This document shows positions 875-60,024 of a DNA stretch of 64,000 nt, piece after piece; within the stretch, counting starts at the first letter, position 1, and each line of letters begins with the position of its first letter. The translations under genes were made by a program, and so were the position numbers. The stretch comes from a virus: positions 1 through 64,000 of IMG/VR virus record IMGVR_UViG_3300032308_002775; one strand, given 5' to 3'. The notes beneath the pieces are model-generated. The model was not told the DNA's origin, did no database searches, and worked only from the letters and a program-made list of their open reading frames with translations.

Positions 875-900
875 GTCGCGGTTATGAGGAAAGATATCTA

Positions 901-1851
901 ATGGGCAGAGCGGCTGAGACCATTCCCGTCGATTTCGTGGAGCATTTCCGCGGGTACTTTCCGCCAGCGCATACAGACACCGCGGCGGTGCTGTGCTACT
1001 TCAACGCCTGCGAGTACAAGGCGCCTTTGGCGAACGCCCTTGCCGTCGTCAACGACTTGCGCCAGGCGAACATCCCGCTGTACCTCATCGAGCTGTGCTA
1101 CGGCGATCAGCTCGGCGTGATGCCGGAACCTACGATGCGCGTCCGGGCGCAGTCGTGGATGTTTCACAAGGAAAACCTGTTCAATCTTGTCACGCCGCAC
1201 ATTCCAGCCCAGTACACGAAGCTGGTCTACCTCGACAGCGATGTGCGTTTCAACTGCGCCGACTGGCTCGACCGGGCGTCGCGCGTCCTGGACCGTTGCG
1301 ACCTGATGCAGCCAATGGACTGGTGTTACTGGTCAGAGTCGTACAACCGCCAGGCGATGGCTGTGCGCGTGTCTCGAAGACTCGCCTGTGACCCAATGCA
1401 GGCGCATCCGGGATTTGCGCTGGGCGTTCGGCGTGAGTGGCTCGCGAAGCTGGGCGGTTTTTTCGAGTTGGCGATGACCGGCTCGGGCGATGCCTGTATG
1501 TGGCACGCCATCGGGAGCGCGCTTAAAGATAATTCCGGGTGGCAAACGTGCGGCTATCCCGGGCACGAAAGCGAGCGCTGGTTAAACAAATGCCCCGGTT
1601 TTGCGAAATATGTTGAGCACGCAAAAGCGCATCCGGCGCGCGTCGGGTTCACCATGGCCTGTTCGATGGGGCACATGCCGCACGGCACGCACAAGAACCG
1701 CCAGTATTACGATCGTGTAGATAAAATGATGCACGCAGGAATTGAAACGACAAGAAACAGCGACGGCGTGCTGGAGCTCGTTCACGAGCAAGATCGGCAG
1801 ATCATCGCTGACTACTTCAAAAGCCGCCGCGATGACGATAATGACGACTGA
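901..1851 (+). CDS. Putative glycosyltransferase (GT-A-like)
   Basis: KENLFN and YLDSDV (DxD) motifs, GSGD; start at ATG 901 after GAGG. Confidence 0.6.
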   Translation: MGRAAETIPVDFVEHFRGYFPPAHTDTAAVLCYFNACEYKAPLANALAVVNDLRQANIPLYLIELCYGDQLGVMPEPTMRVRAQSWMFHKENLFNLVTPHIPAQYTKLVYLDSDVRFNCADWLDRASRVLDRCDLMQPMDWCYWSESYNRQAMAVRVSRRLACDPMQAHPGFALGVRREWLAKLGGFFELAMTGSGDACMWHAIGSALKDNSGWQTCGYPGHESERWLNKCPGFAKYVEHAKAHPARVGFTMACSMGHMPHGTHKNRQYYDRVDKMMHAGIETTRNSDGVLELVHEQDRQIIADYFKSRRDDDNDD

Positions 1852-1872
1852 GCGGCCAGTCGCGCCGCCTGA

Positions 1873-1945
1873 CCCGGAGTGGAGAAATCGGTATCTCGCT
1901 GCCCTCATAAGGCAGAGTTTGCGCGTTCGAGTCGCGCCTCCGGCA
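1873..1945 (+). tRNA. tRNA with CAT anticodon (Met or Ile2), no encoded CCA
   Basis: Cloverleaf: acceptor CCGGAG/CTCCGG, D arm, anticodon stem CTGCC/GGCAG with loop CTCATAA (CAT at 1906-1908), T arm GCGCG-TTCGAGT-CGCGC. Confidence 0.9.
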
Positions 1946-1977
1946 TTGGTATCGTTTCCCGGTCACATGAGGCAAGG

Positions 1978-2358
1978 ATGCCCGCAAAAGACCCTGACGT
2001 ACGCCGCGCAACCTGGCGGCGCTGGTATCAGAACAACAAGCACAAGCAAATTAAACGGGTGCGCAGCCAGTCTCGGCGCAACCGCACAGAGATCCAGCAG
2101 TACAAGAGCGCCACGCCCTGCGCCGACTGCAAGCAGTGCTATCCGCACTACGTTATGGACTTTGATCACGTCACCGGTGAAAAGCTCGCCAACGTCGCCG
2201 ACCTGACACGCACGAATCATTCTCGTAAGCAGGTCTGGGAAGAGATCGCCAAGTGCGAGCTGGTCTGCGCGAACTGCCACCGGGCGCGCACGCACTTCCG
2301 GCGCCAGGAACGGAAGAACAGCAAACACAAAGACGACAACGGCGCTACGGCTGCGTAA
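1978..2358 (+). CDS. HNH endonuclease (putative homing endonuclease)
   Basis: CADC...MDFDHV...CELVCANCHRART; start at ATG 1978 avoids overlapping the tRNA. Confidence 0.85.
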   Translation: MPAKDPDVRRATWRRWYQNNKHKQIKRVRSQSRRNRTEIQQYKSATPCADCKQCYPHYVMDFDHVTGEKLANVADLTRTNHSRKQVWEEIAKCELVCANCHRARTHFRRQERKNSKHKDDNGATAA

Positions 2359-2394
2359 CGCCAGCGATCAGCGGCATCGAACACAGGAGCGACC

Positions 2395-2700
2395 ATGGCA
2401 AACGAGGTAGATGAGATGTCCGCTGCATCGCGTGGTTCTCGGCCGGTGGCTTGGGCGGTCTGGTCGCCTGCCTTTGGCTACCCGTTTGGCGATGCGGCAA
2501 TCTTCAAGCGGAACGAACTTGCAATCGAAATGTGCGTGATGAATGGGTACGGCGTGGACGACATTGTTCCGCTGTATCGCAAGCCGATGCTGGAAGACGA
2601 GGAGTTGAAGGCGATCCGAAGGGCGGCGGCAATGGCGCGAGAGATGCATGACACGCGGCTAGAGGCTGCGTTGGGTGGCCTACTGGAACGACTAGGCTGA
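2395..2700 (+). CDS. Hypothetical protein
   Basis: ORF with AGGAG ribosome-binding site. Confidence 0.65.
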   Translation: MANEVDEMSAASRGSRPVAWAVWSPAFGYPFGDAAIFKRNELAIEMCVMNGYGVDDIVPLYRKPMLEDEELKAIRRAAAMAREMHDTRLEAALGGLLERLG

Positions 2701-2716: not shown

Positions 2717-3640
2717 GTGCATCCGCGCAACTACTCTCACATTCCGCGCCGCAAATACATCGAACGGCAACCGGGCGCGCAGAACCTCGCCGGGTTGGAG
2801 GTCTTGCTTCACCTGGACTCGTTCTGCCTGGGCGACACAGTCTGCCTGGCTTCGTGCCTGCCGGACTTTGTGCGCCACCACCGGCCCAAGAAACTCTGGG
2901 TCACCACGTTCTGGCCCGAACTGTTCGACCAGGCCGCCGAGTTCGAGATCCTGGACGCTGTCTCTGCGAGCGCCGAGCCGCTCGAGTGCGATAAGCTCGT
3001 CCTGGCGGGGTATCGCAAGCAGAGCCTGACGCACACGACCCGCGGCATGTTTTACGCCGCCCGGGACTCGATGGGGCTTCCGGAAGCTCCGCCTGGCGCG
3101 GCGCCCACCCGGCCGCTTCTCCGGCGGCCCATAAGCGGGACTTACCAGCCCAACAAGATCGTGATCGCGCCGGAGAGCACCAAGCAAATTGCGCGTTGGG
3201 ACTATCTGGGCATAGATATCTATGGCTGGCAGGCGGTCGTGGACAACTTAGTTCAGCGCGGTTACGAGGTGCACGATATTTCCTACGAGCACACGCTGAT
3301 GCTCCGCGGCGTCACGAAGCACGGCGGTGACGCAGACATTCAGTCCGCGGTGCAGCATCTCTGCGAAGCGCGCCTGTTCATTGGCCTGAGCTCGGGACTT
3401 GCCTGGCTGGCCTGGGCACATGTAATTCCAGTAGTCATGATCGCGGGTTTCACCAAGCCGCAGAACGAGTTTCCCTGCTACCGGGTCGAGAATCCGTACG
3501 CCTGCTCAGGTTGCTTTAACGTGTTTCCCAACATTCAGCGCGCCTGCCCGCTTTTTCAGGGCACGCCGCGGGAGCACGAGTGCCACCGAACGATTACGCC
3601 CGCGATGGTCCTGGCGCAGGTCGATCGGGCCCTGGTTTGA
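2717..3640 (+). CDS. GT9-like heptosyltransferase (TibC/AAH autotransporter O-heptosyltransferase-like)
   Basis: LGDT motif, FIGLSSGLAWLAWA, C-terminal Cys cluster CSGCFN...CP...EC. Confidence 0.75.
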   Translation: MHPRNYSHIPRRKYIERQPGAQNLAGLEVLLHLDSFCLGDTVCLASCLPDFVRHHRPKKLWVTTFWPELFDQAAEFEILDAVSASAEPLECDKLVLAGYRKQSLTHTTRGMFYAARDSMGLPEAPPGAAPTRPLLRRPISGTYQPNKIVIAPESTKQIARWDYLGIDIYGWQAVVDNLVQRGYEVHDISYEHTLMLRGVTKHGGDADIQSAVQHLCEARLFIGLSSGLAWLAWAHVIPVVMIAGFTKPQNEFPCYRVENPYACSGCFNVFPNIQRACPLFQGTPREHECHRTITPAMVLAQVDRALV

Positions 3641-7264: not shown

Positions 7265-7296
7265 GCCGGGGCCCAAAGATATCTTTGAGCCCCGGC
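7265..7296. promoter_or_regulatory. 32-bp near-perfect inverted repeat centred on AAAGATATCTTT
   Basis: GCCGGGGCCCAAAGAT/ATCTTTGAGCCCCGGC, one mismatch, just after the fibre stop codon. Confidence 0.7.
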
Positions 7297-10428: not shown

Positions 10429-10785
10429 ATGGCGGCTCGTTTTTCGAAGTACCAGGCCCTGGTGCGCATGTTGAAGAAGCACTGTCCTCCCGCTTATCCG
10501 ATTTCGGTGAAGCGCAAAAAGCTGCCCAAAAAGCTTGAAGGTCGGTGCTGGAAGGACGGCAAGCGGTTCTTCATCGAGATCGATAAGTCGATCGACGAAT
10601 ACCGAACCATGGACGTACTACTTCACGAGTGGGCGCACGCCAAGGCCTGGAACCACATGCTGGATGCCGCCAAGGACGACGAGGCGTTCAACAAGCTGGC
10701 CCACGACGCCGCCTGGGGCGTGGCCTATGCCGAGGTCTACTGCGTGTACGAACAGCAGTTCATTCCAGCCGTGTCCCGGATTTGA
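10429..10785 (+). CDS. Small HExxH metallopeptidase-like protein
   Basis: LLHEWAH, with downstream H..AWG. Confidence 0.65.
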   Translation: MAARFSKYQALVRMLKKHCPPAYPISVKRKKLPKKLEGRCWKDGKRFFIEIDKSIDEYRTMDVLLHEWAHAKAWNHMLDAAKDDEAFNKLAHDAAWGVAYAEVYCVYEQQFIPAVSRI

Positions 10786-10805
10786 AAGATATCTTTGAGG
10801 CTGGC

Positions 10806-11251: not shown

Positions 11252-11503
11252 ATGCCGCACGAAATCACAACCACAATAACGAAAGACGAAATTGCGGCGC
11301 TCGATCGAGCTTGGGTGTTTCTTGGCCGGTTTAACGATTTGCGCAGCTCAAATGCAACATCCGCGGAACAGTATCGGCGTATGTTGCAGTTGCTCGGCTT
11401 AGACACACTTGCTGAAGCTTTGGTTGCAGACGAAAAAACGTTTAAGCATTTTTTAGTGCGGCTTGATACGGCGCAGGAAAAAAAGGAAAAAAGCAATGGC
11501 TGA
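11252..11503 (+). CDS. Hypothetical protein
   Basis: ORF with AAGGAG ribosome-binding site. Confidence 0.55.
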   Translation: MPHEITTTITKDEIAALDRAWVFLGRFNDLRSSNATSAEQYRRMLQLLGLDTLAEALVADEKTFKHFLVRLDTAQEKKEKSNG

Positions 11504-15163: not shown

Positions 15164-15733
15164 ATGTCGAACTTTCGCGAACTTTACACGCAGTGGGCTG
15201 AGAAGCAGGCGGCCGTTGAGCTCGCCATGAAGGCTGCGCGCTGCTGGTCCGGTTACGAGCCGGTGCCGGGTAAGGCGCCTTACAGCGAAGACTCCTGCCG
15301 CCCGGTCGGCAGCAAGAAGAAGAAGGAAAAGACTAAAGAAAAGAAGGCCGCCAACTCGGCTTTCCCGGCCTCCGGTCGCCCGACGATGACGCAGATGGCG
15401 CCGAAGCCTGCCGGTGCGCCGGTAGCCAAGCGTGTTTTCCCCACGAACTACAAGTACCACTCGGAAGGCCAAGCGGCAGCGGACGCTGCCGCAAAGAAGC
15501 GCGGGCAGAATATGCCCGCTCCGGTCAACACGGTGGTCAAAGGTTCGTCGGTGCGCGCCGCCGTGAAGTGGGCGGCCACGACCGTCTACAAGCTCACCGA
15601 GAAGAAAGATGAGCCCGTGGTTAACGGCGCGAAGCCGTCGCACGAGTGCTCGAAGCAGGTCGAGGTGAAGCGCCCCGAGCCCAGCAAAAGCGAAGACCTT
15701 CGGCCCGAGGAAGTGCAGCCGAGCAAGTCGTAA
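15164..15733 (+). CDS. Hypothetical protein with CWxGY...C motif (putative head protein)
   Basis: RCWSGYEPVPGKAPYSEDSCRP; GGAGG upstream. Confidence 0.6.
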   Translation: MSNFRELYTQWAEKQAAVELAMKAARCWSGYEPVPGKAPYSEDSCRPVGSKKKKEKTKEKKAANSAFPASGRPTMTQMAPKPAGAPVAKRVFPTNYKYHSEGQAAADAAAKKRGQNMPAPVNTVVKGSSVRAAVKWAATTVYKLTEKKDEPVVNGAKPSHECSKQVEVKRPEPSKSEDLRPEEVQPSKS

Positions 15734-15775
15734 TAGATATCTTTCCCGCCTGCCACGGAAAGGAATCCTGGCGTC

Positions 15776-17240: not shown

Positions 17241-17569
17241 ACTTTTCGTGACGGTTCTGCCCCACACGGAGGACATATGCGGGAGAGGCGCAGGGAGGCG
17301 GTCCCGAGCTGGCCGCGGTCGTCACAAGCGATCGCGCCGCGACGGAAAGAGTACTTGCGGGAGCGGCCTTCCGAACCGGGCCGTGTCTGTACCCCATCGG
17401 GCAGCCGGGGTGCCGGGATGCTGCGGAAAGATATCTTTTCGCGCTTAACGCTGGTTGCTGGGTTTCCAACGCCGTCCGAGCGCCTCCTTCGCCCCAACGA
17501 CACACGAGCACAAGCAGGACGCGAGCGGTCCTGCTGCCAGCGCCCAGCCCGTTTTCTTGGAGTCACGCA

Positions 17570-21307: not shown

Positions 21308-21626
21308 AACTGTTTATCTCCTGCTGGCCTTTGCGCTGGGCTACCTGACCGGCCGGGCGGATTCCCTGTACCGCGCGCTGTGGGACAAGTTTGGCTCTTC
21401 GCCGAAAACCGGGTTCTTCGCCGAGCAGACTCAACCGCCGCGGCCGCAGCACAATGGCCAGCCCGCGCCAAAGATATCTATTGACGAGCGCAAGGTCGTC
21501 TCAGAGATCAGCACGGCGGGCATCGCCAAGTCCGACGCCGCCGCCAGCGAGCTTGGGACGAAAACGGTACAGTCTGATAACATCGACGCGTCGGTGAGCA
21601 AGCTGGCGCAACTCAAAGGGAGATAA
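21297..21626 (+). CDS. Membrane-anchored hypothetical protein
   Basis: N-terminal hydrophobic helix; directly upstream of the actin-like gene. Confidence 0.65.
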   Translation: MQSETVYLLLAFALGYLTGRADSLYRALWDKFGSSPKTGFFAEQTQPPRPQHNGQPAPKISIDERKVVSEISTAGIAKSDAAASELGTKTVQSDNIDASVSKLAQLKGR

Positions 21627-29107: not shown

Positions 29108-30112
29108 ATGACGACAGCCAAAGATATCTTTGAGTGGCAGCGGGTTCCCGAGCGGGTGGCAGCATTGCTTCCCGAGGCGGCGAAGATCCGCGTAGCCCAC
29201 GAGAAGGCCGCTCTGGCGTCGCACATCTTGCCGCTTGCCGTGGCGACGTGGATGCCCGAGGCAAACGTCGTCACTCTTTGGTCGCACAAGCCGCTCGCCG
29301 AGAAACAGGCCGCCGCGTATCGCGAGCACCTGGGCGATTACGGCTGCACGCGCCGCATTCTGACTGCAGAGTTGCCCGCTGATGAGATTCTTATCAAGTG
29401 TGGCAGCGCAGTTTTAATTCCGGGCCTTGATAAGGTCTGGCAGTACGGTAACAAGGCTTTGGGCGGACCTACGCCCCTGTCCAACGGCATCGTCTCGGCG
29501 TTGCTGTTGGGCGGCCTGGGTTACGGTGGCGGCGCCCTGGCCGAGAACCTGTTTCCTGAGCGATACCTCGAGCGCGGGAAACTGCGCCGGTCGCTCGGAA
29601 CCGTGGGCGCGCTTTCCGGCCTGGGCCTGGGCGCCATGAACGCCTACGCCAACAGTCGTGCGATGAACACCGGCTTTCTCAAAGGCCTGGTCACCGACAA
29701 TCGCGCGATTCCGCCCTATCTGGAAGAGAAGAAGTCGTATTACACGCCCGCCGGGCCGGGCTTTTACTACCAGGGAATCAACGTTCCCCAGTTCAACCAG
29801 GCGGCCTGGAACGACGTCAACAAAGGGTTCTACAACCCCATGGGGATGCACAGCCCGCCGCAGTTCGCCGCCGTGACCACTGGCATGATGAGCGGAATCA
29901 GCGCGGGAATGAACTCGCCGATCATCCGCCCCTCCGACGTGGTCAAGGGCTTCGTCTCGGCGGGCGTGGGGCTGGCGACGGCCAATATTGCCGGGAAAAC
30001 CTTGGCCGCCCTGGCCGGGTTAACCCCCGAGGCCCAAAACAAACTGCAGGATATGGGACTTTGGGCCGGAATGATGCACGCGGTAGTTCCTCCCCTTTTT
30101 GGGCGGCGCTAG
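29108..30112 (+). CDS. Glycine-zipper-containing putative virion protein
   Basis: LLLGGLGYGGG and GALSGLGLG segments. Confidence 0.6.
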   Translation: MTTAKDIFEWQRVPERVAALLPEAAKIRVAHEKAALASHILPLAVATWMPEANVVTLWSHKPLAEKQAAAYREHLGDYGCTRRILTAELPADEILIKCGSAVLIPGLDKVWQYGNKALGGPTPLSNGIVSALLLGGLGYGGGALAENLFPERYLERGKLRRSLGTVGALSGLGLGAMNAYANSRAMNTGFLKGLVTDNRAIPPYLEEKKSYYTPAGPGFYYQGINVPQFNQAAWNDVNKGFYNPMGMHSPPQFAAVTTGMMSGISAGMNSPIIRPSDVVKGFVSAGVGLATANIAGKTLAALAGLTPEAQNKLQDMGLWAGMMHAVVPPLFGRR

Positions 30113-31850: not shown

Positions 31851-32156
31851 ATGACCACGTTTCAGCTCCTCGCCCTGCTTCTGTTTGCCGGTGTGGTCCT
31901 CGCGGCCTACGGCAAAGATATCTATGGCTGGGTCAAGGCCCGCCTGCCCAAGCTTCCCGAGCCGGTGGTAAACCCCGCCGCGCCGGTCACGCCAGGCGCC
32001 CCGGACGTCCCCACGGGCGACCTGCTCGTTGACGACCTGCTCGACGTCGCTGCGATGCGCGACCGCTTCGAGGCCGAGGGTTGCGCCGAGGGTGTCGAGG
32101 CCTGTTCGCTCCTGCTCAAGATCCTGATCGACCACAAGCATCCGCACGCGGGGTGA
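31851..32156 (+). CDS. Membrane-anchored hypothetical protein
   Basis: N-terminal TM, Pro-rich linker; GGAGG. Confidence 0.7.
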   Translation: MTTFQLLALLLFAGVVLAAYGKDIYGWVKARLPKLPEPVVNPAAPVTPGAPDVPTGDLLVDDLLDVAAMRDRFEAEGCAEGVEACSLLLKILIDHKHPHAG

Positions 32157-39800: not shown

Positions 39801-41261
39801 GTCTACGAGAAGTTTGTTAACCAGCTCAAGGGCGCTGGAATTAACACCGTGCGCGAAGGGACAAAGACGCACATCATGGCGGTGACCGACCGCGACATCG
39901 ATGAGCTGGCCGGGGCCCGCGAGGTCACCAACTCCGAGACAGTCGACTGGAAGGGGCGGCTCAAGCCGATCAAGGGCGGCCTGTTCGATGAAACGCTCAC
40001 CGGCGGCCACGGCGGCAACCGCTGGAGCAAGATCACGCTTCACGAACCGATGCCCAACCCGGTCATGGAGGAGCCAATCCGCCGGGTGCTCGGGCTTACC
40101 GAGAAAGAGTTCCGCGGAGTGCTCGCCGGGCAGGTGCAGCTGTTCGACAAGACCGGCCCGGAGGCCATCCAGGGCGCCCTGGGGCGGATCAACCTGCCCA
40201 AGGCGATCGAGCAGGCCAGGTTAGATATCAAATCGGGACGCAAGACTTTGCGCGACGCCGCCGTGCGGAAGCTGGGATACCTCAAGAACGCTGAATCGAC
40301 CGGCGTCCATCCCAAGGACTGGATGATGAGCAAGGTCGGCGTGCTCCCGCCGATTTTTCGGCCCGTCTCCACGATGGGCGCCAAAAAGTTACCGCTCGTG
40401 GCCGACGCGAATTACCTCTACAAGGAACTGCTCGACGCGAACGACACGCTCAAGGAAGCCTCCGGCGCCCTGAGCGAATACAGCGACGAACGGCTGGGCC
40501 TGTACGACGCCATGAAGGCCGTCTCCGGGTTGGGCGATCCGACGCAGCCCAAGAATCAGGAACGCCGTGTGAAGGGCTTTTTGCAGCACGTCTTCGGCAG
40601 TTCGCCCAAGTACGGCACCGTGCAGCGCAAGCTTCTCTCGACCACGGTCGACTTGGTGGGGCGGGCAGTTATTACGCCGAACCCGGACCTCGACATGGAC
40701 CAGGTCGCGCTTCCCGAGGACAAGGCCTGGGAGGTCTACAAGCCGTTCGTGGTGCGGGGCCTGGTGCGCCGCGGAATGCCCCGGATGAATGCGCTGGACG
40801 CCGTCGAAAACCGCAACAAGGCGGCGTACGACGAGCTGAACACGCAGATGTCGTCCCGGCCGATCGTCATTAACCGTGCGCCGGTGCTCCATCGATACGG
40901 TATGATGGCGTTTTATCCGAAGCTCACCAAGAACAAGGTTATGGAGGTTAACCCGGTCATTACCAAGGGTTTTGGCGCCGACTTTGACGGGGACGCGATG
41001 CAGTATCACGTTCCCAGCACCGAGGACGCCGCCAAGGAAGCCGTCGAAAAAATGCTTCCAAGCAAAAATCTCTTTTCGACGGCAAGCTTCAAGGCCCACT
41101 TTGTTCCGAACAGGGACTATCAGACCGGGGTTTACCTGGCTTCGAGCCGGGTCGACAAGAAACAGAAGCCGAGGGTATACAAGTCACGGCAGGACGCCAT
41201 GAACGCCTATCGCCGCGGGGAGATTGACGTCGACACCCCGGTGCATATCGTCGAGAGTTAA
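36846..41261 (+). CDS. Phage DNA-directed RNA polymerase: beta subunit fused to the N-terminal (catalytic) half of beta'
   Basis: Beta motifs RTPESGKVG, NYEDAVVIS, GDKLTGRYGDKGVV, SPLGLISRVN, MKLHH; beta' motifs VLPPIFRP, VDLVGRAVI, NRAPVLHR, GADFDGDAM. Confidence 0.95.
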   Translation: MSAMPDSILSGPPAPITPTPQPQAPLQTRSFGDIGALRTNIFDRALQSASSLEPIKNDLYTLQLANVAYTGPERFTKADQKKAVLTGNSLHRRLTGTWNLIDNTTGAPIATRQQTIAHVPYLTDSGTFVNRGVEYTLAHQMRLKAGVYTREKDNGELEAHVNVLPGKGRMHRYFLDPKTGVMNINIGQAKIPLMPLLKAMGAKDSDIRAAWGNEITAVNMEKGDAGTLDKLYQRLVYRQTPGIDAAAKQKAIADEFARMELDPDVTRRTLGKEYKNLTPEAILDITKKLIALNRKEADPDDRDAMAYQSIVGPEDLISERFTKDKQALRKLLWKATAKKNLDHVPTGVFNKAIQAALIGSGLGSSLEEINPAEIFDHQGRVTRMGEGGIGSLDAVPQESRSVQPSHLGFVDFLRTPESGKVGVDMRFARGAMKGTDGKIYTPVVNIQTGETEMKTPGELAETPLAFPGEEKTDMPMVAALVGGKMQYVPREEVQFSLPNMDSTFSALSNMVPLKSMMKGQRAVMASRMFTQALPLSGAEAPLVQSAVVDKDGVSHEDEMGEKLGAVKAQFHGQVVSAEPGMIVLRDREGKKHEIDLYNDMPFNRKTFWHQTPVVKPGDVIKPGQLLAHSNFTDPSGTAAMGKNLRVAYLPYQGKNYEDAVVISESAAKKLTSEHMYQHEAEWTENSHVGKKAFVALFPGEYDKKQLENFDDKGAIKKGTVVNYGDPLILQAKAKETTYGKVHRGRAGNFMNETLTWEHHSPGVVTDVEHTDKGVSVVVKSQAEMQVGDKLTGRYGDKGVVADIVPDHRMPQDKDGSPYEVLVSPLGLISRVNPAQVVEAALGKIAAKTGQPFKLKDFDSAQDLVEFAQNELGKHGLSDTEDVTDPETGRKIKSVLTGNRFFMKLHHTAESKGQGRAMSSYTAEGTPAKGGSEGAKRVGMLDLGALLSHGAGKVIRDAKMVRGQANPEYWSQFMAGYTPPLPKVPHVYEKFVNQLKGAGINTVREGTKTHIMAVTDRDIDELAGAREVTNSETVDWKGRLKPIKGGLFDETLTGGHGGNRWSKITLHEPMPNPVMEEPIRRVLGLTEKEFRGVLAGQVQLFDKTGPEAIQGALGRINLPKAIEQARLDIKSGRKTLRDAAVRKLGYLKNAESTGVHPKDWMMSKVGVLPPIFRPVSTMGAKKLPLVADANYLYKELLDANDTLKEASGALSEYSDERLGLYDAMKAVSGLGDPTQPKNQERRVKGFLQHVFGSSPKYGTVQRKLLSTTVDLVGRAVITPNPDLDMDQVALPEDKAWEVYKPFVVRGLVRRGMPRMNALDAVENRNKAAYDELNTQMSSRPIVINRAPVLHRYGMMAFYPKLTKNKVMEVNPVITKGFGADFDGDAMQYHVPSTEDAAKEAVEKMLPSKNLFSTASFKAHFVPNRDYQTGVYLASSRVDKKQKPRVYKSRQDAMNAYRRGEIDVDTPVHIVES

Positions 41262-42242: not shown

Positions 42243-44123
42243 ATGCTCAAGACGACGCTCGGTCAAATTCTCGTAAACGAGGCGCTGCCCGAGGACATGC
42301 GCAACTACGAGCGCGTCCTGACCAAAAAGGAAATGGGCAAGCTGGCCACGGAGCTGGCGCAGAAGTACCCGGACAAATACCGGGACGTCATGAAGCGCCT
42401 GCACGACGTGGGCCGCGACGCTGCGTACACCACGAACGGCCTGTCGTTTGGGCTGAAAGATATCAAACCGACGGTGGCCGCCCGCGACGTACAACTGCGG
42501 GTGCAGCGGCAGCTCCGCGGCATTCTGGCAAACCGCGACCTGGACGATAAGACCCGCTCGCTGGCCATTCTCAAGCTGGCCGCTGGCGCGCAGAAAGAGC
42601 TTGTCGAGCGCGTTTACGATGAGGCGCGCGGCAACGACAACCCGCTCGCGCATCAGGTAACCGGGTCTGCCGTCGGCAACAAGTTCAGCCTGAATTCGCT
42701 GATCGGCGCCGACATGCAGTATGTCGACCACAAGAACGACCCAATTCCGATTCCGGTGATGCGGAGTTACGGCCAGGGGCTTCGACCCGTGGAATATTTT
42801 GCGGGCGCCTTCGGCACCCGCAAGGGGTTGATGGACCTAAAAACGGCGACGGCCGACGCGGGCTTTTTCGGCAAACAGCTCGCCCAGATGACGCACCGGC
42901 TGCTCGTCACGGCCGACGATGACGACGATCAAGAGCGCAATGCCACTGCGCAAGACCGCGGCTTTCCGACCGACGTGGACGACGTCGACAACGAGGGCGC
43001 GCTTCTGGCGCGACCGGTGGGGCCGTACAAGCGCAACACCGTCCTGACGCCAAAGATTCTTAAAGACATCAAGGAGATGGGCATTCAGGACATCCTGGTG
43101 CGCAGCCCGCTCACCGGCGGCCCGGACGACGGCGGCGTCTACGCCAAAGACGTCGGCTACCGCGAGAAGGGCAAGCTGCCTCCAATCGGCGACTATGTCG
43201 GTATCGCCGCCGCCCAGGCCCTCTCCGAGCCGGTGACTCAGGCGCAGATCAGCTCGAAGCACTCCGGCGGCGTGGGCGGCGCGGCCTCAATCTCGGGCTT
43301 CAAGGCGATTAACGCGCTAGTCCAGGTCCCGAAAAAGTATCCCGGCGGCGCCGCGCATTCTCAGCTTGACGGATTCGTGCAGGAAATCCGCGAAGCGCCC
43401 CAGGGCGGCCATTACGTTCAAATCGGCGGCGAAGATCATTACGTGCCGGTCGACCAGGAGCTGACGGTCAAGAAGGGGCAAGAGGTCGAGGCGGGCGACT
43501 CGATCACCAATGGCATGCCCAATCCGGCCGAAGTCGTCCGGCACAAGGGCATCGGCGAGGGGCGCAGGTACTTTGTGCAGGCCATGCGCCAGGTTCTCCA
43601 GAACTCCGGCGTGTCGCCTCACCGCCGTAACATTGAACTGCTCTCGCGCGGGCTGGTCAACCACGTTCGCATGACCGACGAATACGGTGATTACAACCCC
43701 GACGACGTGGTGCCGTACTCGATGCTCGAGCGTGCTTGGCAGCCGCGTCAAGGAAGCGTGACGGGCGTGCCCAAAAGCCTGCAGGGGCATTACCTGGAGC
43801 GGCCCGTGCTCCACTACTCGGTCGGCACGAAGATCGGCAAGAATGTCGCCAGCACGCTTCAAAAGTACGGCATTAACAATGTCGAAGCGCACCGGGAACC
43901 GCCGCCCTTCCAGCCTGAAATGGTGCGCGGCATGTCGAACATCTCGAACGACCCAGACTGGATGACCCGAATGCTCGGTTCTTACCAGCAAAAGGGCCTG
44001 CTCAGCAGCGTGCACCGCGGTTCGACCAGCGACGCGGCTGGAAGCAGCTTCGTTCCCGCGCTGGCCCGCGGCGAAACGTTCGGCGTGACCGGCGCGACGA
44101 GCGGATGGCGCCCGCAAACGTGA
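42243..44123 (+). CDS. Phage RNA polymerase beta' C-terminal half (bridge helix and trigger loop)
   Basis: TTLGQILVN, SYGQGLRPVEYF, GTRKGLMD..TADAGF, VRSPLT, AAAQALSEPVTQ, RNIELL. Confidence 0.92.
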   Translation: MLKTTLGQILVNEALPEDMRNYERVLTKKEMGKLATELAQKYPDKYRDVMKRLHDVGRDAAYTTNGLSFGLKDIKPTVAARDVQLRVQRQLRGILANRDLDDKTRSLAILKLAAGAQKELVERVYDEARGNDNPLAHQVTGSAVGNKFSLNSLIGADMQYVDHKNDPIPIPVMRSYGQGLRPVEYFAGAFGTRKGLMDLKTATADAGFFGKQLAQMTHRLLVTADDDDDQERNATAQDRGFPTDVDDVDNEGALLARPVGPYKRNTVLTPKILKDIKEMGIQDILVRSPLTGGPDDGGVYAKDVGYREKGKLPPIGDYVGIAAAQALSEPVTQAQISSKHSGGVGGAASISGFKAINALVQVPKKYPGGAAHSQLDGFVQEIREAPQGGHYVQIGGEDHYVPVDQELTVKKGQEVEAGDSITNGMPNPAEVVRHKGIGEGRRYFVQAMRQVLQNSGVSPHRRNIELLSRGLVNHVRMTDEYGDYNPDDVVPYSMLERAWQPRQGSVTGVPKSLQGHYLERPVLHYSVGTKIGKNVASTLQKYGINNVEAHREPPPFQPEMVRGMSNISNDPDWMTRMLGSYQQKGLLSSVHRGSTSDAAGSSFVPALARGETFGVTGATSGWRPQT

Positions 44124-46589: not shown

Positions 46590-46985
46590 ATGGCAAGTAC
46601 GATTTGGTCCGGCGAGACGACGTTTGAAGCAACCAGCGGTTCACAGACTGTAGTCCCGATTCGGGTGCCGCACCGCGGTATTCTCCGCGGCTACAGCCTC
46701 ACGCAGACCAGCGGCGCCAACGCCGGTGCCGCCGCGGCTTTGTACACCAGCAAGCAGGACACCGCGCCAAACAACACGCTTCCCGCCGAGGCGTTTCACA
46801 TTCTCGACATCACGCTACCCACGGCGGCCAAGGTCGACGACCACAGCGCCGAAGTTGCGTACATCAACCGAGATGGCACGCCCACGAACCCGCAAAGATA
46901 TCTTTACTTGAAGATCACTCCGGCGGGGTCGGGCGCCAAGAACTTTGTGTTCTCGGTGACGATTGAAGTCCCGAAGATGGGCTAA
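46590..46985 (+). CDS. Hypothetical beta-rich protein
   Basis: AAGGTG upstream; ORF in the operon. Confidence 0.7.
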   Translation: MASTIWSGETTFEATSGSQTVVPIRVPHRGILRGYSLTQTSGANAGAAAALYTSKQDTAPNNTLPAEAFHILDITLPTAAKVDDHSAEVAYINRDGTPTNPQRYLYLKITPAGSGAKNFVFSVTIEVPKMG

Positions 46986-47916: not shown

Positions 47917-49860
47917 ATGCAGCCACTTTCCAAGGCCGCGGAAACCAAGCTAATCGGCGCCATCGAGCGCGCCGCGGCTTATGTGAACGGCGGACTGGCG
48001 CCCAACGACGCCATCGTGAAGAGCGCCGCCGAGTCCGATATTCCGGCGGGGCATATCAACCTCATGGTCCACGCCTACAACACGGGCCGGACCACCAAGC
48101 AGCGCGAACAGGGCAGCGACACCCTGGAAAAGGCGGCCGACTTTCCGCTCGCTGACGCGCAGACTGTGCTCGACGCGCTTTATCCCAAGGCCGTGAAGAC
48201 CTCCGCTGAGATTTCACGCGCTCATGTGGTTTCTGCTGAATACGCTGTGAGCCCCGCCGGAATGCTGGCGCGCCGCAAGGCGACTCAGTCCAAGGAGGCG
48301 GCCGCAAAGATATCTTTGCCCGAGAAGACGTGGACCCCTCCGCCCCGTGACGAAGAGGCTGCTGCCCGCCGGGCTGCCTCGGAGAAGCGCGCCGCAGAGT
48401 TGGCCCAGCAGGAGCTGCGACGCCAGGCCACGGTTGCCTACACAAAGGCTGCTGCGGCGATGGAAGAGCTTCACGAGTATTTCCGTCATCCGGGCAATAT
48501 GAGTTTCCAGGACGCCGTGCGCGAGACCGAGCTGCGCTACGGCGAAGACGGCGTTAACGTGCTGAACAAGCTCGCCGCCGTCTATCCGCATTTGACGAAG
48601 CAGGCCGCCACCGGTGACGTGTTCATGGGCGAGTGCCAGCCCTGCAAGCTGGCCGAGACCGTGCTCAGCGCGATCGAGGCTTACAACGAGGCGCAGGCGC
48701 GGGTGCCTGTGGCGAAGCAGGCCTCGTCAAAAAAAGCTGAACCAGCGGTCGTCACCGGGAGCATTCTGTACGACCCGGTCGCCGAACCGCTGGAGTTGAA
48801 GAACGCCATGGCCGCGGGCGATCGCTACGGCCTGGTCGATCCGCCGCGTAAAGGACAAGAGGGCGCGCCGCGACTCGGTAATAAAGGTGTCGAGGTCGAC
48901 CCAGCGGCGCACGCGTCTTTTGTACAGCGCCGCCCGCCGCCGGGTGATCCGGCAGAATTTCGCCTGGTTATGCCGGACAGAAAGCGCGGCAACCCAATTT
49001 GGGTGCATCTGAACGAAATAATGGCTGAGGACGCATTCGACCGGATGAAGGCAGAGCAACTTGCGCACGAGGCTGCTAATCGCGCTGCGCGCCAGCAGCA
49101 ACAGGCGGGCGGAGGTTCTGGCAACGGCGGATCTGGTGGTGGTGGTCCCGGCGGCCCGGGTGGTGGCGGGAGCGGCTCGCTTGTTGACATGCTGAATGCT
49201 TGGGTGGCGGGTGGTGCCGGTGGCGGTGGCGCTGGAGGTGGCGGTGGCGCTGGAGGTGGCGGTGGCGCTGGAGGTGGAGGCGGCGCTGGAGGTGGAGGCG
49301 GGGCAGGCGGCAATCCACCGGCCGGGCCGATTCAACTTCTCACGCGAAACGTAGCCGCGCGAAATCAAAACAACCAGCGCAACAACCAGCGTAACGACGG
49401 CGGCCAACGGCGCGGCGGTAACAACAAGACGCCAGAAAAGCCTGGTTTGATGTCAGCGCCCGGTCGAATTGCTGGCGGCATGGTGCGCGGAATGCTCGCC
49501 AATCAGACGACGCCTGCGGATTTGCGGCGCGGCGCTTTTGAAAGCTTGACCGATCCGGAGCACGAGACTGAACTGCGCAACATTCGCGCGCAAAGCATTC
49601 TCCACGACCTGGTCATGAACGACCCGGTTATTTCCGGTTATGATCCGGCCGAGGTGGCCAACGCGTTTAACGAATTGGCCGACGTTGCCCCGAACTTTGT
49701 GAACTCGCCTGCTACAATGCAAGCTCTCCTGCGCAAGCGCCTCGAAGCCGGACAGATGGCCGACTTCGACGTGAAGCAGCTCATTGACATGGAAAAGTCG
49801 AGAGCTGAAACGGACAAGGCGCGCATCGAGGCGTTGCAGAAAGAACGCGAACTGATCTGA
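47917..49860 (+). CDS. Putative virion protein with Gly-rich insertion
   Basis: K-x-A motifs; poly-Gly and Asn/Gln-rich segment. Confidence 0.65.
   Translation: MQPLSKAAETKLIGAIERAAAYVNGGLAPNDAIVKSAAESDIPAGHINLMVHAYNTGRTTKQREQGSDTLEKAADFPLADAQTVLDALYPKAVKTSAEISRAHVVSAEYAVSPAGMLARRKATQSKEAAAKISLPEKTWTPPPRDEEAAARRAASEKRAAELAQQELRRQATVAYTKAAAAMEELHEYFRHPGNMSFQDAVRETELRYGEDGVNVLNKLAAVYPHLTKQAATGDVFMGECQPCKLAETVLSAIEAYNEAQARVPVAKQASSKKAEPAVVTGSILYDPVAEPLELKNAMAAGDRYGLVDPPRKGQEGAPRLGNKGVEVDPAAHASFVQRRPPPGDPAEFRLVMPDRKRGNPIWVHLNEIMAEDAFDRMKAEQLAHEAANRAARQQQQAGGGSGNGGSGGGGPGGPGGGGSGSLVDMLNAWVAGGAGGGGAGGGGGAGGGGGAGGGGGAGGGGGAGGNPPAGPIQLLTRNVAARNQNNQRNNQRNDGGQRRGGNNKTPEKPGLMSAPGRIAGGMVRGMLANQTTPADLRRGAFESLTDPEHETELRNIRAQSILHDLVMNDPVISGYDPAEVANAFNELADVAPNFVNSPATMQALLRKRLEAGQMADFDVKQLIDMEKSRAETDKARIEALQKERELI
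49219..49308 (+). repeat. 18-bp tandem repeat x5 (GGTGGCGGTGGCGCTGGA) encoding GGGGAG
   Basis: Three exact and two degenerate units. Confidence 0.9.
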
Positions 49861-57868: not shown

Positions 57869-58053
57869 AACGGGCGGGAAACGCGGGCATATTACATGCT
57901 CCCTGGTTTTGCGGTCAGGGGGGCTTCCGAGGCACATTTTGGCGCGGTAGATTCACGCCAATCTGTGAAACGGGGTTAGATATCTTTGGCGGCCCTATTT
58001 TGGGGCGCCGGGGAGCTGGGCACTTTCCCAGTCACCTGCGGAGGAGACCGACC

Positions 58054-58344
58054 ATGCCAGTGGTGATGGTCAACAAAGAAACCCAGATTGCTCTGCGCGC
58101 CATTCGCGACATCAACAAGCGGACGAACGGTCAGCTTGTCGAGAAAGCCGTGGAGAAGGCGCGGGGAGAGACCGTGGAGAGCCTGGGTTTGGGCGAGGCG
58201 CTGGCTCAAGCGATTCGTATCGCCTACGCGCCGTTCGTCATGCTGGCGCCGCCGCCCACGGTGGCGCTGCTCAACGCCTTCATGGCCAAGGTCGATTGGA
58301 ACTATATCGTCGACAACCTTCTGATCCGGCCGGAGCTGAACTAA
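58054..58344 (+). CDS. Hypothetical protein (paralog of the next gene)
   Basis: GGAGGAG RBS; IRIAY...VDW..I. Confidence 0.65.
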   Translation: MPVVMVNKETQIALRAIRDINKRTNGQLVEKAVEKARGETVESLGLGEALAQAIRIAYAPFVMLAPPPTVALLNAFMAKVDWNYIVDNLLIRPELN

Positions 58345-58631
58345 TGAGCCAAACGGCGCAACTGAATCAGATGAGCACGCTGATCCTAGATTGGATCCGC
58401 AGCATGGACGCCGAGGAAGGCCCCACGCTCCGAGAGGTCACGGAACAGTTCGGCTACGAGGGCGACATCGAGAAGATCGGCGAGTCGATTCGTCTGGCTT
58501 ACATGAGCCTGAACGCCGTGTTCTTGCCCGTGGCGCCGCAGTTCCTGCGCGCCGTCTTCGACGACTGCGTCGCCCAAATCGACTGGGTCGGCATCGCTCG
58601 GCAGCGGATGGCCGAGACCAAAAACGAATGA
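58344..58631 (+). CDS. Hypothetical protein (paralog of the previous gene)
   Basis: TAATG coupling; IRLAY...IDW..I. Confidence 0.65.
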   Translation: MSQTAQLNQMSTLILDWIRSMDAEEGPTLREVTEQFGYEGDIEKIGESIRLAYMSLNAVFLPVAPQFLRAVFDDCVAQIDWVGIARQRMAETKNE

Positions 58632-58636
58632 ACTTC

Positions 58637-58684
58637 AGAAAAGCGTTCGCGCACCGCCCTTCGGGGCGGGCGCGGCGTTTTTCT
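58637..58684 (+). terminator. Intrinsic terminator
   Basis: CCGCCC-TTCG-GGGCGG hairpin with extended stem and T-tract. Confidence 0.7.
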
Positions 58685-58716
58685 TAGCTATCAGCGCGCC
58701 CAGCTACAATAAGCCT

Positions 58717-60024
58717 ATGTCCAGCTTCAAGCGCTTATTTCCGTTCCGCCAGGTGGCCGTGGATCACATGGTCCGCGGCGTCACCCGGGTCTGGTGGCAG
58801 CTGGAGCGCAACTTTAACGACCCCGGCCCGTACGTCTTCCAGCTCCAGTACGGCAACACGCCGCTCAACGACGCCACGGACTGGCGCAACGTCGGCAGCC
58901 CAGTCACCGACGGCTACGTGGCCTACGACGACGCTTGGCGCGCTGCCGGGACGGACATCGTCACCCATTACCGGGTAACACTGACGACCGAGAAAGATAT
59001 CTATGTCAGCGCCCCGGTGAACTGCTTCGGGGAGCTGGCCGAGCGCGACTGGAACATCGCCCGGGAGATCATCCGCAAGGAGCAGCTGCGCCACAAGTAT
59101 GTCTCGGTCTCGGGCTACCTGATCAAGCCGTTCCGTTTCGGGCGGCCCTGCACCCGCTGCCGCGACCAGCTCACCGGCGAAGTGCTCGATTCCAACTGCC
59201 CGGTCTGCTCGGGAACCGGCTTCGAAGTCGGCTACCACCCGGCTCTGCCGCTGCAATGCTGGGACGTGGCGCCCTATACGATTACTGAGGATCAGGAGAT
59301 TAACTCCCTGGGCACGACCCGCAAAGACCACATGACGCGGGCCCGGGTAATTGGCTTTCCGACGCTCAACACCAACGATATCTGGGTTAACGGCACCTCC
59401 GACGAGCGTTGGATCATCCACAGCATTAAGGTCGCCGCGGCCATTCGGGGCGTGCCGCTGATCTACGAGGTTGAAATGGGTTTGGTGCCCCTAACCAACG
59501 CGATCTACGCGCTGGAAGTGGGCGGCGAGCCTCCGGAGCGCCCAGGCCCGACCCTGCCGATCATTGGTTGCGGCTCCGTGGTGGTCGACCACAATTACGG
59601 CGGCGTCGATAACCTGACTTACCGGGATGCCACCGGCTACAGCATCGTCGGCGCTAACGTCTATGTGTTTCCCAAAGATATCTTTGACGCCGCCTACCCG
59701 GACTTGCCCAACCGAAACCTGGCCGTCGCCGGAACCACGACGCGCGTTAACGGCCGCTGGACTGAGTCGCTACTCCTGAATCCGGGCGACTACGCCGTCC
59801 TGTATGAAAAGCCCGGCGAGTGGGGACCGGACACCGATCTGATTACTGTGGTTCCCGCTGACGCGGAAAGCTCCTTTACCTGGGTGCCGAACATCGCCCT
59901 GGCCGCCGAGGAGGGCAGCTCGATTCCTGACGCCACGCTGGCCACAGAGTCGAGCGAGGCGGTCACCACCGAGACCGAGGAAAAGGTTCGGGCGCCGCTG
60001 GACGACGATTTCTGGGCCTTCTAA
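58717..60024 (+). CDS. Putative head-closure/neck protein with Zn finger
   Basis: CTRC...CPVCSGTGF; position between adaptor and tail genes. Confidence 0.55.
   Translation: MSSFKRLFPFRQVAVDHMVRGVTRVWWQLERNFNDPGPYVFQLQYGNTPLNDATDWRNVGSPVTDGYVAYDDAWRAAGTDIVTHYRVTLTTEKDIYVSAPVNCFGELAERDWNIAREIIRKEQLRHKYVSVSGYLIKPFRFGRPCTRCRDQLTGEVLDSNCPVCSGTGFEVGYHPALPLQCWDVAPYTITEDQEINSLGTTRKDHMTRARVIGFPTLNTNDIWVNGTSDERWIIHSIKVAAAIRGVPLIYEVEMGLVPLTNAIYALEVGGEPPERPGPTLPIIGCGSVVVDHNYGGVDNLTYRDATGYSIVGANVYVFPKDIFDAAYPDLPNRNLAVAGTTTRVNGRWTESLLLNPGDYAVLYEKPGEWGPDTDLITVVPADAESSFTWVPNIALAAEEGSSIPDATLATESSEAVTTETEEKVRAPLDDDFWAF

Follow-up and report, generated by a model that had tools for sequence, protein, structure and literature searches.

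Dispersed sites in described systems

NBS, SBS and matS, the sites of Noc, SlmA and MatP, are 12-14-bp palindromes that are read by dimers, occur in tens of copies, lie mostly within genes and function independently of gene expression. HIP1 (GCGATCGC) and the USS/DUS are highly iterated, frame-independent short words, and DUS exist in lineage-specific 'dialects'. The stoperators of Cluster A mycobacteriophages comprise about 30 repressor-binding sites distributed genome-wide, many of them in short junctions between genes, and are asymmetric, pointing one way relative to transcription. Plasmid RK2 carries 12 OB sites on 60 kb. The OB operator of this IncP plasmid is a 13-bp palindrome with A/T-rich arms, at which the clamp KorB loads before sliding across kilobases of DNA (PMC11790492). 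Cluster O mycobacteriophages carry more than 30 copies of 17-bp dyad-symmetric repeats, TGTTCGGNNNCCGAACA, some of them in coding regions (Cresawn et al. 2015, PMC4351075). The authors of that study, which also mentions the Cluster A stoperators, gave the function of the Cluster O repeats as unknown and suggested a dimeric regulatory protein (PMC4351075).

We analysed a window of 64,000 nt within the 153,669-bp record (60.4% GC) of a large uncultured phage (G000). Its sequence statistics indicate that a 12-letter AT-rich palindrome is kept about every 4,000 bases along the whole GC-rich chromosome. The Cluster O repeats resemble this element in kind, both being short dyad repeats dispersed through a phage genome and partly located in genes. 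They differ, however, in sequence, in host group and in belonging to an unrelated phage family. [quoted passage not shown] The likeness to KorB-OB lies in a mobile element that carries a palindrome at intervals of roughly 5 kb, many copies being far from promoters, but OB sites, unlike the phage sites, do not lie within coding sequence in every frame. As in ParB/KorB/Noc-type arrays of dispersed 12-16-bp palindromes, 40 copies of 12-14 bp were found over 153.7 kb. KorB is a ParB-family CTPase, whereas no ParB_N protein was found alongside the phage sites: six-frame searches with PF02195 in G000 and five relatives (G001-G005, four of them complete) yielded nothing at E <= 0.1, and control genomes were matched.

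Noc, SlmA and MatP act regionally on host chromosomes, where sites occur about every 50-200 kb, as opposed to every 4 kb genome-wide in this phage, and no homologue of a reader of this type was detected in it. Stoperators are oriented, whereas the phage sites are palindromic, and copies in the relatives with only one A/T-rich flank are oriented 24:21, 19:19, 15:15 and 15:17 with respect to the gene strand. HIP1 and USS/DUS are host-genome words; USS/DUS are asymmetric, unlike the phage sites, and HIP1 is linked to methyltransferases, none of which were found in the phage genomes searched. The genome-wide pattern agrees with the original prediction in being closer to marks of the Noc, SlmA, MatP or KorB type than to promoter operators.

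Enrichment and coding cost of the palindrome

The original prediction had listed 14 copies of AGATATCT in the window, and all 14 coordinates proved right, with two A/T bases on both sides of every copy (W-W in 14/14). Dinucleotide shuffles yielded 0.19 expected copies, and none of 100 reached 14. The weaker copies reported at 3636, 40221 and 42456 were all real, and the full element WWWGATATCWWW occurs 17 times in the window, with 0.00 expected. The sites are given below without strand.

890..901, AAAGATATCTAA: 15 nt past the upstream stop codon; its final base is the A of the following ATG
3212..3223, ATAGATATCTAT: within CDS 2717-3640, frame 0, I-D-I-Y, rare ATA codon
3636..3647, variant TTTGATATCATT: overlaps the stop codon of CDS 2717-3640
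7275..7286, AAAGATATCTTT: intergenic, stop codon 19 nt before; sole copy within a long GC-rich dyad
10785..10796, AAAGATATCTTT: abuts the TGA stop of CDS 10429-10785
15733..15744, ATAGATATCTTT: abuts the TAA stop of CDS 15164-15733; PhoH-like gene downstream
17427..17438, AAAGATATCTTT: in a conserved 329-nt spacer following the PD-(D/E)XK gene; equivalent in G004, TTTGATATCAAA
21470..21481, AAAGATATCTAT: within CDS 21297-21626, frame 2, K-I-S
29120..29131, AAAGATATCTTT: within CDS 29108-30112, frame 0, K-D-I-F, 12 nt after the start; kept in G001
31914..31925, AAAGATATCTAT: within CDS 31851-32156, frame 0, K-D-I-Y; kept in G001
40221..40232, variant TTAGATATCAAA: within RNA polymerase gene 36855-41261, L-D-I-K; relatives have E-D-I-K without the motif
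42456..42467, variant AAAGATATCAAA: within second RNA polymerase gene 42243-44123, K-D-I-K; kept in G004
46894..46905, AAAGATATCTTT: within CDS 46590-46985, frame 1, Q-R-Y-L; kept in G001 and G005
48306..48317, AAAGATATCTTT: within CDS 47917-49860, frame 2, K-I-S; kept in G001
57976..57987, TTAGATATCTTT: intergenic, between 56852-57868 and 58054-58344
58993..59004, AAAGATATCTAT: within CDS 58717-60024, K-D-I-Y; in G004, AAGGACACCTAC, K-D-T-Y
59674..59685, AAAGATATCTTT: within CDS 58717-60024, K-D-I-F

As originally described, six of the 14 copies lie at gene boundaries and eight within CDSs, in all three frames (K-D-I-F/Y and I-D-I-Y; K-I-S; Q-R-Y-L), and motif sites do use the rare ATA codon, which accounts for 3% of Ile codons. 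The motif encodes all six K-D-I-F and all three K-D-I-Y peptides, even though the codons involved have frequencies of 0.28, 0.24, 0.62 and 0.46/0.24. Comparison with relatives revealed that some sites also incur amino-acid changes; at 58993, the difference from the G004 peptide puts the price at one amino-acid change and four synonymous changes.

The whole record contains 30 copies of AGATATCT, which is its most over-represented 8-mer (z 45), 40 of WWWGATATCWWW and 59 of GATATC. The codon-preserving shuffle proposed as a check was run 300 times, exchanging synonymous codons only and keeping every protein and the codon usage. Inside genes, 20 copies of AGATATCT were observed compared with 1.36 +/- 1.06 after shuffling (largest value 5), and 28 of WWWGATATCWWW compared with 1.05 +/- 1.0 (largest value 4). 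GATATC lacking A/T flanks was at chance level, neither enriched nor avoided, with 19 copies in the whole record; 21.7 copies with any flanks are expected inside genes alone. An assembly artefact was ruled out, as the element is also dense in several independently assembled relatives. The in-gene excess, the codon choice and the conservation of the core support the proposal that the motif is selected at the DNA level.

Anatomy and placement of the sites

The element consists of an invariant GATATC core with A/T flanks, and no conservation was seen past +/-7. Palindromes of 14-32 bp had been claimed for several copies; the long dyad at 7275 is real, but it is the only one; symmetry is at background more than 6-7 bases from the centre and palindromy ends at 12-14 bp. 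In G000, G001 and G004, symmetric flank pairs occurred at the frequency predicted by independent half-sites, and covariation between half-sites was looked for in these three genomes and not found. The +/-4 positions were non-complementary in 9 of 40 sites (type AAAGATATCAAA or TTTGATATCTTT). Judged from sequence, independent half-sites fit reading by a dimer and do not fit a base-paired stem, and the anatomy, including the missing orientation, is as expected for the dimeric protein originally suggested.

An intrinsic terminator or RNA hairpin was rejected on the basis of the arms, which do not covary, and of the short symmetry; a polar word of the Chi, KOPS or USS type on the basis of the palindromic form and the unoriented one-flank variants. 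A sigma-dependent phage promoter was likewise rejected, the sites being symmetric, unoriented and, in 28 of 40 cases in G000, inside genes, where they occupy any relative position. For these intragenic sites, the distance to the next start often exceeds 300 nt and reaches 1.7 kb. Gene boundaries hold 12/40, 17/49 and 17/40 of the sites compared with 8-10% non-coding DNA, a 4-5x enrichment, and 29 of the 46 intergenic copies in G000, G001 and G004 lie within about 21 nt of the upstream stop codon. This proximity may indicate some connection to gene ends, which a lattice of sites would not explain. Nearly all genes are on one strand, so that nearly every site is transcribed.

Spacing, turnover and spelling in relatives

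The gaps between sites had coefficients of variation of 0.60 in G000, 0.59 in G001 and 0.66 in G004, compared with about 0.96 for random placement, and even spacing was supported with P values of 0.0005, <0.0001 and 0.003, respectively. The largest gaps in these genomes were 9.7-13.3 kb and the smallest 424-700 bp. G005 was also evenly spaced (P = 0.011); even spacing was not detected in G016, G022 and G002, for which one-flank sites were counted. GATATC without A/T flanks showed random spacing in every genome examined.

The density is maintained at one site per 3-5 kb in seven relatives with RNA polymerase identities of 83% or more. The densest complete relative is the 204-kb G001, with 49 sites; G002 has four, and G003 is motif-free. 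Conservation in relatives, which the original prediction had named as a test, was evident: the core was identical at 23 of 30 aligned G001 sites, compared with 22.9% of control hexamers from the same alignments, which have about 77% identity (P = 7e-10). Seven of the nine sites present only in G001 lie within 1 kb of a site present only in G000 (null 1.7, P = 0.0002), and for G004 the corresponding figure was 9 of 13 (null 4.9, P = 0.023). A lost site thus appears usually to be compensated by a replacement within 1 kb. The element is also respelled between lineages. One sister phage writes it as WTTGATATCAAW, sometimes at the same positions. G004 contains 31 copies of TGATATCA, with an 18-bp consensus of CTCATTGATATCAATGAG, and some of these coincide with places of AAAGATATCTTT in G000 and G001, for example at 17427.

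Candidate readers and alternative explanations

Neither of the partners proposed for the motif is supported. The actin-like protein encoded at 21629 (Pfam Volactin) is missing from G001 with its 49 sites and present in G002 with four, and the supposedly HTH-like ORF at 46985, which lies among virion and RNA polymerase genes, could not be matched to Pfam or PDB sequences, nor meaningfully to the Atlas, and is retained even by the motif-free G003. A 475-aa ORF considered as ParB-like had no Pfam match. Six-frame searches of the complete relatives revealed no HU/IHF, HTH_3 or RHH_1 domains, and most small ORFs have no family assignment. The DNA methyltransferase families PF02086 and PF00145 and the Vsr family PF03852 had no match in G000-G005, and PF01555 had none in G000, the one genome searched for it. 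Nothing favours a role in packaging or modification; none of three methyltransferase families was found in the phage genomes searched.

We consider it unlikely that the sites are operators of a global transcription regulator, as in KorB-OB on IncP plasmids or the Cluster A stoperators, or promoters recognised by the sigma-RNA polymerase that the phage itself encodes. The phage does encode a fused beta/beta' RNA polymerase and a sigma70-like factor, gene boundaries are enriched, and one site per few genes would correspond to the scale of operons. However, most sites are intragenic and often far from the next start, they are symmetric and unoriented despite the one-sided arrangement of the genes, and the intergenic copies adjoin stop codons with no set distance to starts. 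Moreover, ordinary TTGACN-17-TAnAnT promoters and GC-hairpin/T-run terminators were seen in the spacers. Salmonella phage Arash, the nearest cultured relative (32% RNA polymerase identity), possesses the asymmetric promoter-like word GGTATAAGTA in 16 copies and no palindrome lattice. Its RNA polymerase and sigma70-like proteins are located in the virion (PMC10585845).

It is rather improbable that the sites are targets of a phage PD-(D/E)XK nuclease or nickase, kin to homing and type II restriction enzymes, that would introduce programmed regular nicks or breaks, comparable to the nicks in the phage T5 genome, or start recombination-dependent replication with the SbcC and SbcD proteins that the phage encodes. 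Gene 16569-17240, whose slot adjoins a conserved site, shows the E...D...D-x-K signature of this superfamily, with E65, D102, D113 and K115 invariant in 16 sequences. The confident structure model of its product (pLDDT 82) has a restriction-endonuclease-like fold, matching best I-Ssp6803I (Z 7.7, rmsd 3.5, 122 aligned), followed by Hjc (Z 6.0) and several restriction enzymes, among them PvuII, DpnI and the GATATC-specific EcoRV; all scores are nevertheless below Z 8, a range reachable by chance arrangement. G019 and G011 carry a different gene of this kind (Pfam PDDEXK_5) in the same slot, and either type is present in 7 of 7 motif-dense genomes compared with 7 of 17 others, counts that are not independent because the genomes are related. 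Yet PDDEXK_5 genes also occur in the motif-poor G002, G009, G020 and G023, and both types are absent from G005, G016 and G022, which still have about 45 flanked GATATC sites. Such a sporadic distribution would be expected if the gene encoded a mobile homing endonuclease or an exchangeable junction resolvase. Since no protective methyltransferase was found in the phage genomes searched, an enzyme cutting both strands would destroy the genome that encodes it. As a reader of the sites, the nuclease is a weak candidate.

A word read on single-stranded DNA or RNA, such as a primase start, a Chi-like nuclease signal or an RNA hairpin or processing site, seems highly doubtful. Chi, uptake sequences and priming words are also typically evenly spaced, a palindrome offers the same word on both strands for the price of a single site, and nearly every site is transcribed. 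Against this, complementary flank pairs are not in excess, the halves vary independently as for duplex reading by a dimer, and strand polarity is absent. The recognition words of DnaG-type enzymes are trinucleotides, and the search revealed no Prim-Pol domain, just a weak DnaG-type zinc ribbon.

The least probable explanation, that the palindrome is non-adaptive and results from biased repair, methylation or restriction pressure exerted by a phage or host enzyme, as proposed for HIP1 in cyanobacteria, would suit the frame-independent enrichment through point substitution, the core that is a classic type II restriction/methylation site and the lineage-specific spelling reminiscent of methyltransferase specificities, but mutational drive predicts neither even spacing nor replacement within 1 kb, unflanked GATATC is at chance level, and a restriction-modification or HIP1-like palindrome was rejected because no cognate Dam-type, N6/N4 or C5 methyltransferase and no Vsr-type repair gene was found in the phage genomes searched.

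A putative genome-wide lattice of binding sites

Promoters, terminators, RNA hairpins, Chi-like words and restriction or methylation footprints do not fit the lattice. With a probability of roughly 55%, the copies of WWWGATATCWWW form a genome-wide lattice of putative binding sites, whose reader would be a symmetric DNA-binding protein, sequence-specific and probably a homodimer; all support for this view comes from sequence statistics of uncultured phages. We infer that a protein reads the sites, that this reader is encoded by the phage and that the lattice may serve to mark or organise the chromosome; the reader may instead be a host protein, or the word a host repeat. Each monomer would read one half-site, (C/G)-A-W-A-G-A-T here and C-A-T-T-G-A-T in the sister phage, and DNA bending or deformation is probably aided by the TpA step at the centre together with the A/T flanks. 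The protein would act on double-stranded DNA irrespective of genes or strand, and the phage would require about one site in each neighbourhood of roughly 4 kb. Our best guess is that a factor would nucleate or load at the sites and extend a few kb from them by spreading, sliding or bridging, leaving the entire chromosome marked, coated or organised as 'self'.

Over-representation of the palindrome and selection at the DNA level

The palindrome AGATATCT was found to be the most over-represented 8-mer of the record, with no unrelated word close to it. The original prediction had placed 14 copies in the window, each with two A/T bases on both sides, and all 14 were present at those positions with these flanks, against an expectation of 0.19. 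When three weaker copies are counted in, the window contains 17 copies of the full element WWWGATATCWWW, in which the GATATC core carries A/T flanks, against 0.00 expected. The whole record comprises 59 GATATC, among them 30 AGATATCT and 40 WWWGATATCWWW, and the remaining 19 are present at about chance level. Three other palindromes are over-represented in the record: GTGTT-N4-AACAC (5 copies), TTCATGAA (9 copies) and TTCAC-N8-GTGAA (5 copies), the last of which lies in several instances directly before a ribosome-binding site.

The view that the motif is selected at the DNA level was supported by a codon-preserving shuffle, in which synonymous codons were permuted within each gene while every protein and its codon usage were kept. 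Within genes, 20 AGATATCT were observed against 1.36 +/- 1.06 in the shuffled controls, and 28 WWWGATATCWWW against 1.05 +/- 1.0. Wherever K-D-I-F (six cases) or K-D-I-Y (three cases) occurs in the proteome, the peptide is encoded via the motif, with codons that are minority choices (AAA 0.28, GAT 0.24, TTT 0.46, TAT 0.24), and the sites in frame 2 employ ATA, which accounts for 3% of Ile codons. Alignments to relatives show that sites originate by point substitution, at times with an amino-acid change; at 58993, the record (G000) encodes K-D-I-Y and the related genome G004 encodes K-D-T-Y.

Site anatomy, gene context and spacing

The sequence logo consists of the half (C/G)-A-W-A-G-A-T followed by the half A-T-C-T-W-T-(G), and no conservation is observed further outward. 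Several copies had been proposed to extend into long palindromes; this holds only for the copy at 7275, which lies in a long dyad, and symmetry over the sites is at background past 6-7 bases from the centre. In G000 and in the two motif-dense relatives G001 and G004, left and right flanks match each other at the rate expected for independent halves at each position, and the +/-4 positions are non-complementary in 9 of the 40 sites. The halves therefore do not covary as a base-paired stem would require. At the level of sequence, this independence and the non-complementary +/-4 positions are the signature of two half-sites, which would be read separately on duplex DNA.

With regard to genes, 28 of the 40 sites of G000 lie within them, at any relative position and in all three frames (17, 7 and 4 sites), and 12 lie at gene boundaries, the latter class comprising 17 of 49 sites in G001 and 17 of 40 in G004. 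Most boundary copies touch the stop codon upstream of them or share bases with it (29 of 46 are within about 21 nt of it), and their distance to the next start ranges from 0 to more than 2 kb. Some bases of the motif can come from a stop codon, as with the TGA within TTGATATC, but this does not fully explain the preference.

The sites are distributed more evenly than random placement would produce. Against a random expectation of about 0.96, the gap CV was 0.60 in G000 (n = 40, P = 0.0005), 0.59 in G001 (n = 49, P < 0.0001) and 0.66 in G004 (n = 40, P = 0.003), with neither clusters nor long empty stretches between sites in these three genomes. The sites of a further relative, G005, are also evenly spaced (P = 0.011). 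As an internal control, GATATC without A/T flanks was found to be randomly spaced in all genomes.

The phage and its genes

The window covers the first 64 kb of a virus record that consists of one contig of 153,669 bp, has a GC content of 60.4% and is 75% complete according to CheckV. A codon-usage gene caller identified about 179 genes, 174 of them on the + strand. The phage encodes a tail sheath, a gpA-type terminase, SbcC/SbcD and a DnaB-like helicase, together with the following features.

Features of the record relevant to the analysis
36855-41261 and 42243-44123: fused beta/beta'-type multisubunit RNA polymerase, bacterial-type, among virion genes
Record 75232-76044: sigma70-like factor (Sigma70_r3), in the tail/baseplate region
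21629-22633: actin-like ATPase, Pfam Volactin match over its full length (1e-62)
16569-17240: family-less 223-aa gene with an invariant E...D...D-x-K nuclease signature and a confident structural model

The closest cultured phage is Salmonella phage Arash, with 32% identity over the polymerase, and polymerase subunits and a sigma factor are present and abundant in Arash virions (PMC10585845). When the polymerase gene was used as a nucleotide query against the phage collection, no match was obtained. IMG/VR contains 46 related contigs, a large share of them around 200 kb in length, and whole genomes were compared for eight relatives, namely six uncultured ones and the cultured Arash and Vibrio phage D69. 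The 'direct terminal repeats' annotated in G001, G002 and G022 are only 73-127 bp long and are probably assembly overlaps. A scan of bacterial genomes for the host returned just two short contigs, both from the unclassified MAG 'bacterium WB9_2_064' and both probably phage fragments.

Several further features were observed. A large sugar-nucleotide/glycosyltransferase set (11496-11924, 19648-20634, 25241-25642; record 95164-97005, 129714-130682, 139400-140914 and 141991-142800) includes cupin/lyxose-isomerase-like, GT9 heptosyltransferase-like, GT25, GT2-like, NAD epimerase and HldE-like kinase/adenylyltransferase members, and several genes of this kind are confined to motif-dense genomes; their products may act on DNA, on virions or on the host envelope. 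A PAS-domain protein and a 2H phosphoesterase-domain protein (26518-27084 and 27095-28720) are both unusual for a phage. The record also exhibits a stretch of 3.8 kb without a called gene (about 90.8-94.6 kb) and tRNA-like T-arm sequences directly before two genes, upstream of 135415 and 141991.

Conservation, turnover and re-spelling among relatives

Seven relatives with a polymerase identity of at least 83% have one site per 3-5 kb, the group at 76-80% mostly has one per 9-25 kb with almost none in a few genomes, and density is near zero below this range. In the intermediate group, GATATC still occurs at about twice its expected frequency, with about 30-45 copies per genome carrying A/T on at least one side after our rough correction for chance, and for such one-flank sites neither orientation to the gene strand is preferred. 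This excess of flanked GATATC indicates that the core is the constant part of the element and the flank rule the variable one.

Of the 30 sites aligned between G000 and G001, 23 share an identical core, compared with 22.9% of the hexamers used as controls in these alignments (P = 7e-10); between G000 and G004 it is kept at only 6 of 19. G004 uses a different spelling, with 31 copies of TGATATCA and the consensus CTCATTGATATCAATGAG, and shared positions can be re-spelled on both sides, as at 17427, where AAAGATATCTTT of G000 corresponds to TTTGATATCAAA of G004. Sites private to one genome usually have a private site of the other genome within 1 kb, which was the case for 7 of 9 in the G001 comparison (null 1.7, P = 0.0002) and for 9 of 13 in the G004 comparison (null 4.9, P = 0.023). 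Selection thus keeps a site per neighbourhood rather than a fixed nucleotide.

The GATATC lattice is absent from the distant relative G003 (229 kb), which contains the palindromes TCAAT-N8-ATTGA and AGATC-N5-GATCT (8 copies each) and may carry a different mark. Arash and Vibrio phage D69, both cultured and only distantly related, likewise lack it. Arash exhibits an asymmetric word, GGTATAAGTA, in 16 copies counted on both strands against 0.26 expected, which looks like an extended -10 promoter element.

Search for a protein reading the sites

Neither of the two partners originally suggested could be retained. The Volactin-type actin-like gene occurs in 9 of 11 near-complete relatives, the exceptions being G001 and G003, and its presence does not follow that of the lattice: the complete G001, with its 49 sites, lacks the gene, and G002 carries it with 4 sites. 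The ORF at 46985, proposed as HTH-like, showed no detectable DNA-binding domain, no Pfam or PDB sequence match and Atlas scores of at most 0.76.

Six-frame HMM searches did not find ParB_N, PF02086 (Dam-type) or PF01555 in G000, nor ParB_N, PF02086, C5 methylase, Vsr or topoisomerase IV/GyrA in G001-G005. Across seven genomes, HTH_3, RHH_1 and HU/IHF were not found above threshold, and sub-threshold HTH_3 matches occurred only in the motif-poor G002 and G003. Phylogenetic profiling for genes present only in G000, G001 and G004 yielded mostly family-less ORFs. The most basic and best conserved of these encodes 110 aa (record 106631-106963) with a predicted SH3-like fold and weak Atlas neighbours only, and we regard it as a lead only.

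The nuclease-like gene at 16569-17240 was the best lead. Its model is closest in fold to I-Ssp6803I (a homing endonuclease; Z 7.7), to Hjc and to several restriction enzymes, EcoRV among them. The gene occupies a variable slot flanked by PhoH-like and ferritin-like genes (15776-16492 and 17570-18046); in G019 and G011 its place there is taken by a Pfam PDDEXK_5 nuclease. It has the look of a mobile nuclease of the homing type or of a junction resolvase that can be exchanged. One of the two nuclease types is present in each dense genome; however, PDDEXK_5 is found in motif-poor genomes too, and some genomes that retain flanked GATATC sites carry neither type. Given that this distribution does not track the lattice closely enough, the gene is kept only as a rival candidate. 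The adjoining 329-nt spacer (17241-17569) is 88% conserved in G001 and 81% in G004, above many neighbouring genes, and contains an Arg-rich ORF of 98 codons that has a good Shine-Dalgarno sequence and was rejected by the gene caller; the spacer may represent a small gene or else a structured RNA.

Discussion

The most economical reading of these sequence patterns is that the lattice provides docking sites for a symmetric dimeric DNA-binding protein, encoded by the phage or possibly by its host. Such a reader would act on duplex DNA independently of genes and would be required about once in every 4 kb. That sites are evenly spaced, and are replaced nearby when lost, suggests that the factor has a limited reach per site, which could be achieved by spreading, sliding or bridging. 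The lattice may serve, for example, self-marking, protection, compaction or timing.

Among more specific forms of this reading, we give a probability of about 0.3 to the possibility that this family of phages of about 200 kb with a virion-type RNA polymerase evolved its own non-ParB chromosome-marking system, with a putative fast-evolving dimeric reader. The dimer would nucleate at one site per about 4 kb and coat the phage genome over its whole length, bridge it or tether it, and the specificity of the dimer would co-evolve with about 40-50 sites simultaneously. Possible purposes include discrimination of phage from host DNA, a shield from host nucleases, and organisation of replication or packaging. 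In a variant of the marking reading, an I-Ssp6803I-like nuclease would generate a programmed lattice of nicks.

Avoidance of restriction, or drive linked to methylation, is an unlikely cause, since unflanked GATATC is at chance level, no Dam-type, N6/N4 or C5 methyltransferase and no Vsr was found in the genomes searched, and drive predicts neither even spacing nor local replacement. A promoter or terminator role is ruled out by position, symmetry and the absence of orientation, and the spacers contain ordinary -35/-10 promoters and hairpin/T-run terminators. An RNA hairpin or cruciform stem is ruled out by the lack of covariation and by symmetry that stops at 12-14 bp. Polar words such as Chi, KOPS and uptake sequences are asymmetric, unlike the symmetric lattice site.

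Dispersed palindromes read by dimers organise bacterial chromosomes and plasmids, as with Noc, SlmA, MatP and KorB. To our knowledge, only a few unexplained repeat arrays are on record for phages. The proposed factor would resemble the KorB-OB, Noc-NBS and SlmA-SBS systems in its limited reach from each site; as ParB_N was not found in G000-G005, the lattice is not a member of these families. No relevant literature on the 8-mer, or on phage palindromes at even spacing, was found beyond the papers cited here. Among published phenomena, the closest is a 17-bp dyad repeat, itself unexplained, in Cluster O mycobacteriophages (PMC4351075), from which the lattice differs in being mostly in genes and evenly spaced, and in showing compensatory turnover and re-spelling in a sister lineage.

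Selection has written about 40-50 evenly spaced sites through the genes of a phage, with local replacement and with re-spelling of the whole set in a sister lineage. The two lineage spellings, AAAGATATCTTT and ATTGATATCAAT, constitute a natural specificity swap, and the site is a concrete bait for finding its reader, for instance as duplexes of CAAAGATATCTTTG and CATTGATATCAATG. As evidence that a viral chromosome has a genome-wide function independent of its genes, the lattice is unusually clear, and marking of the whole chromosome would be a function not yet described for phages.
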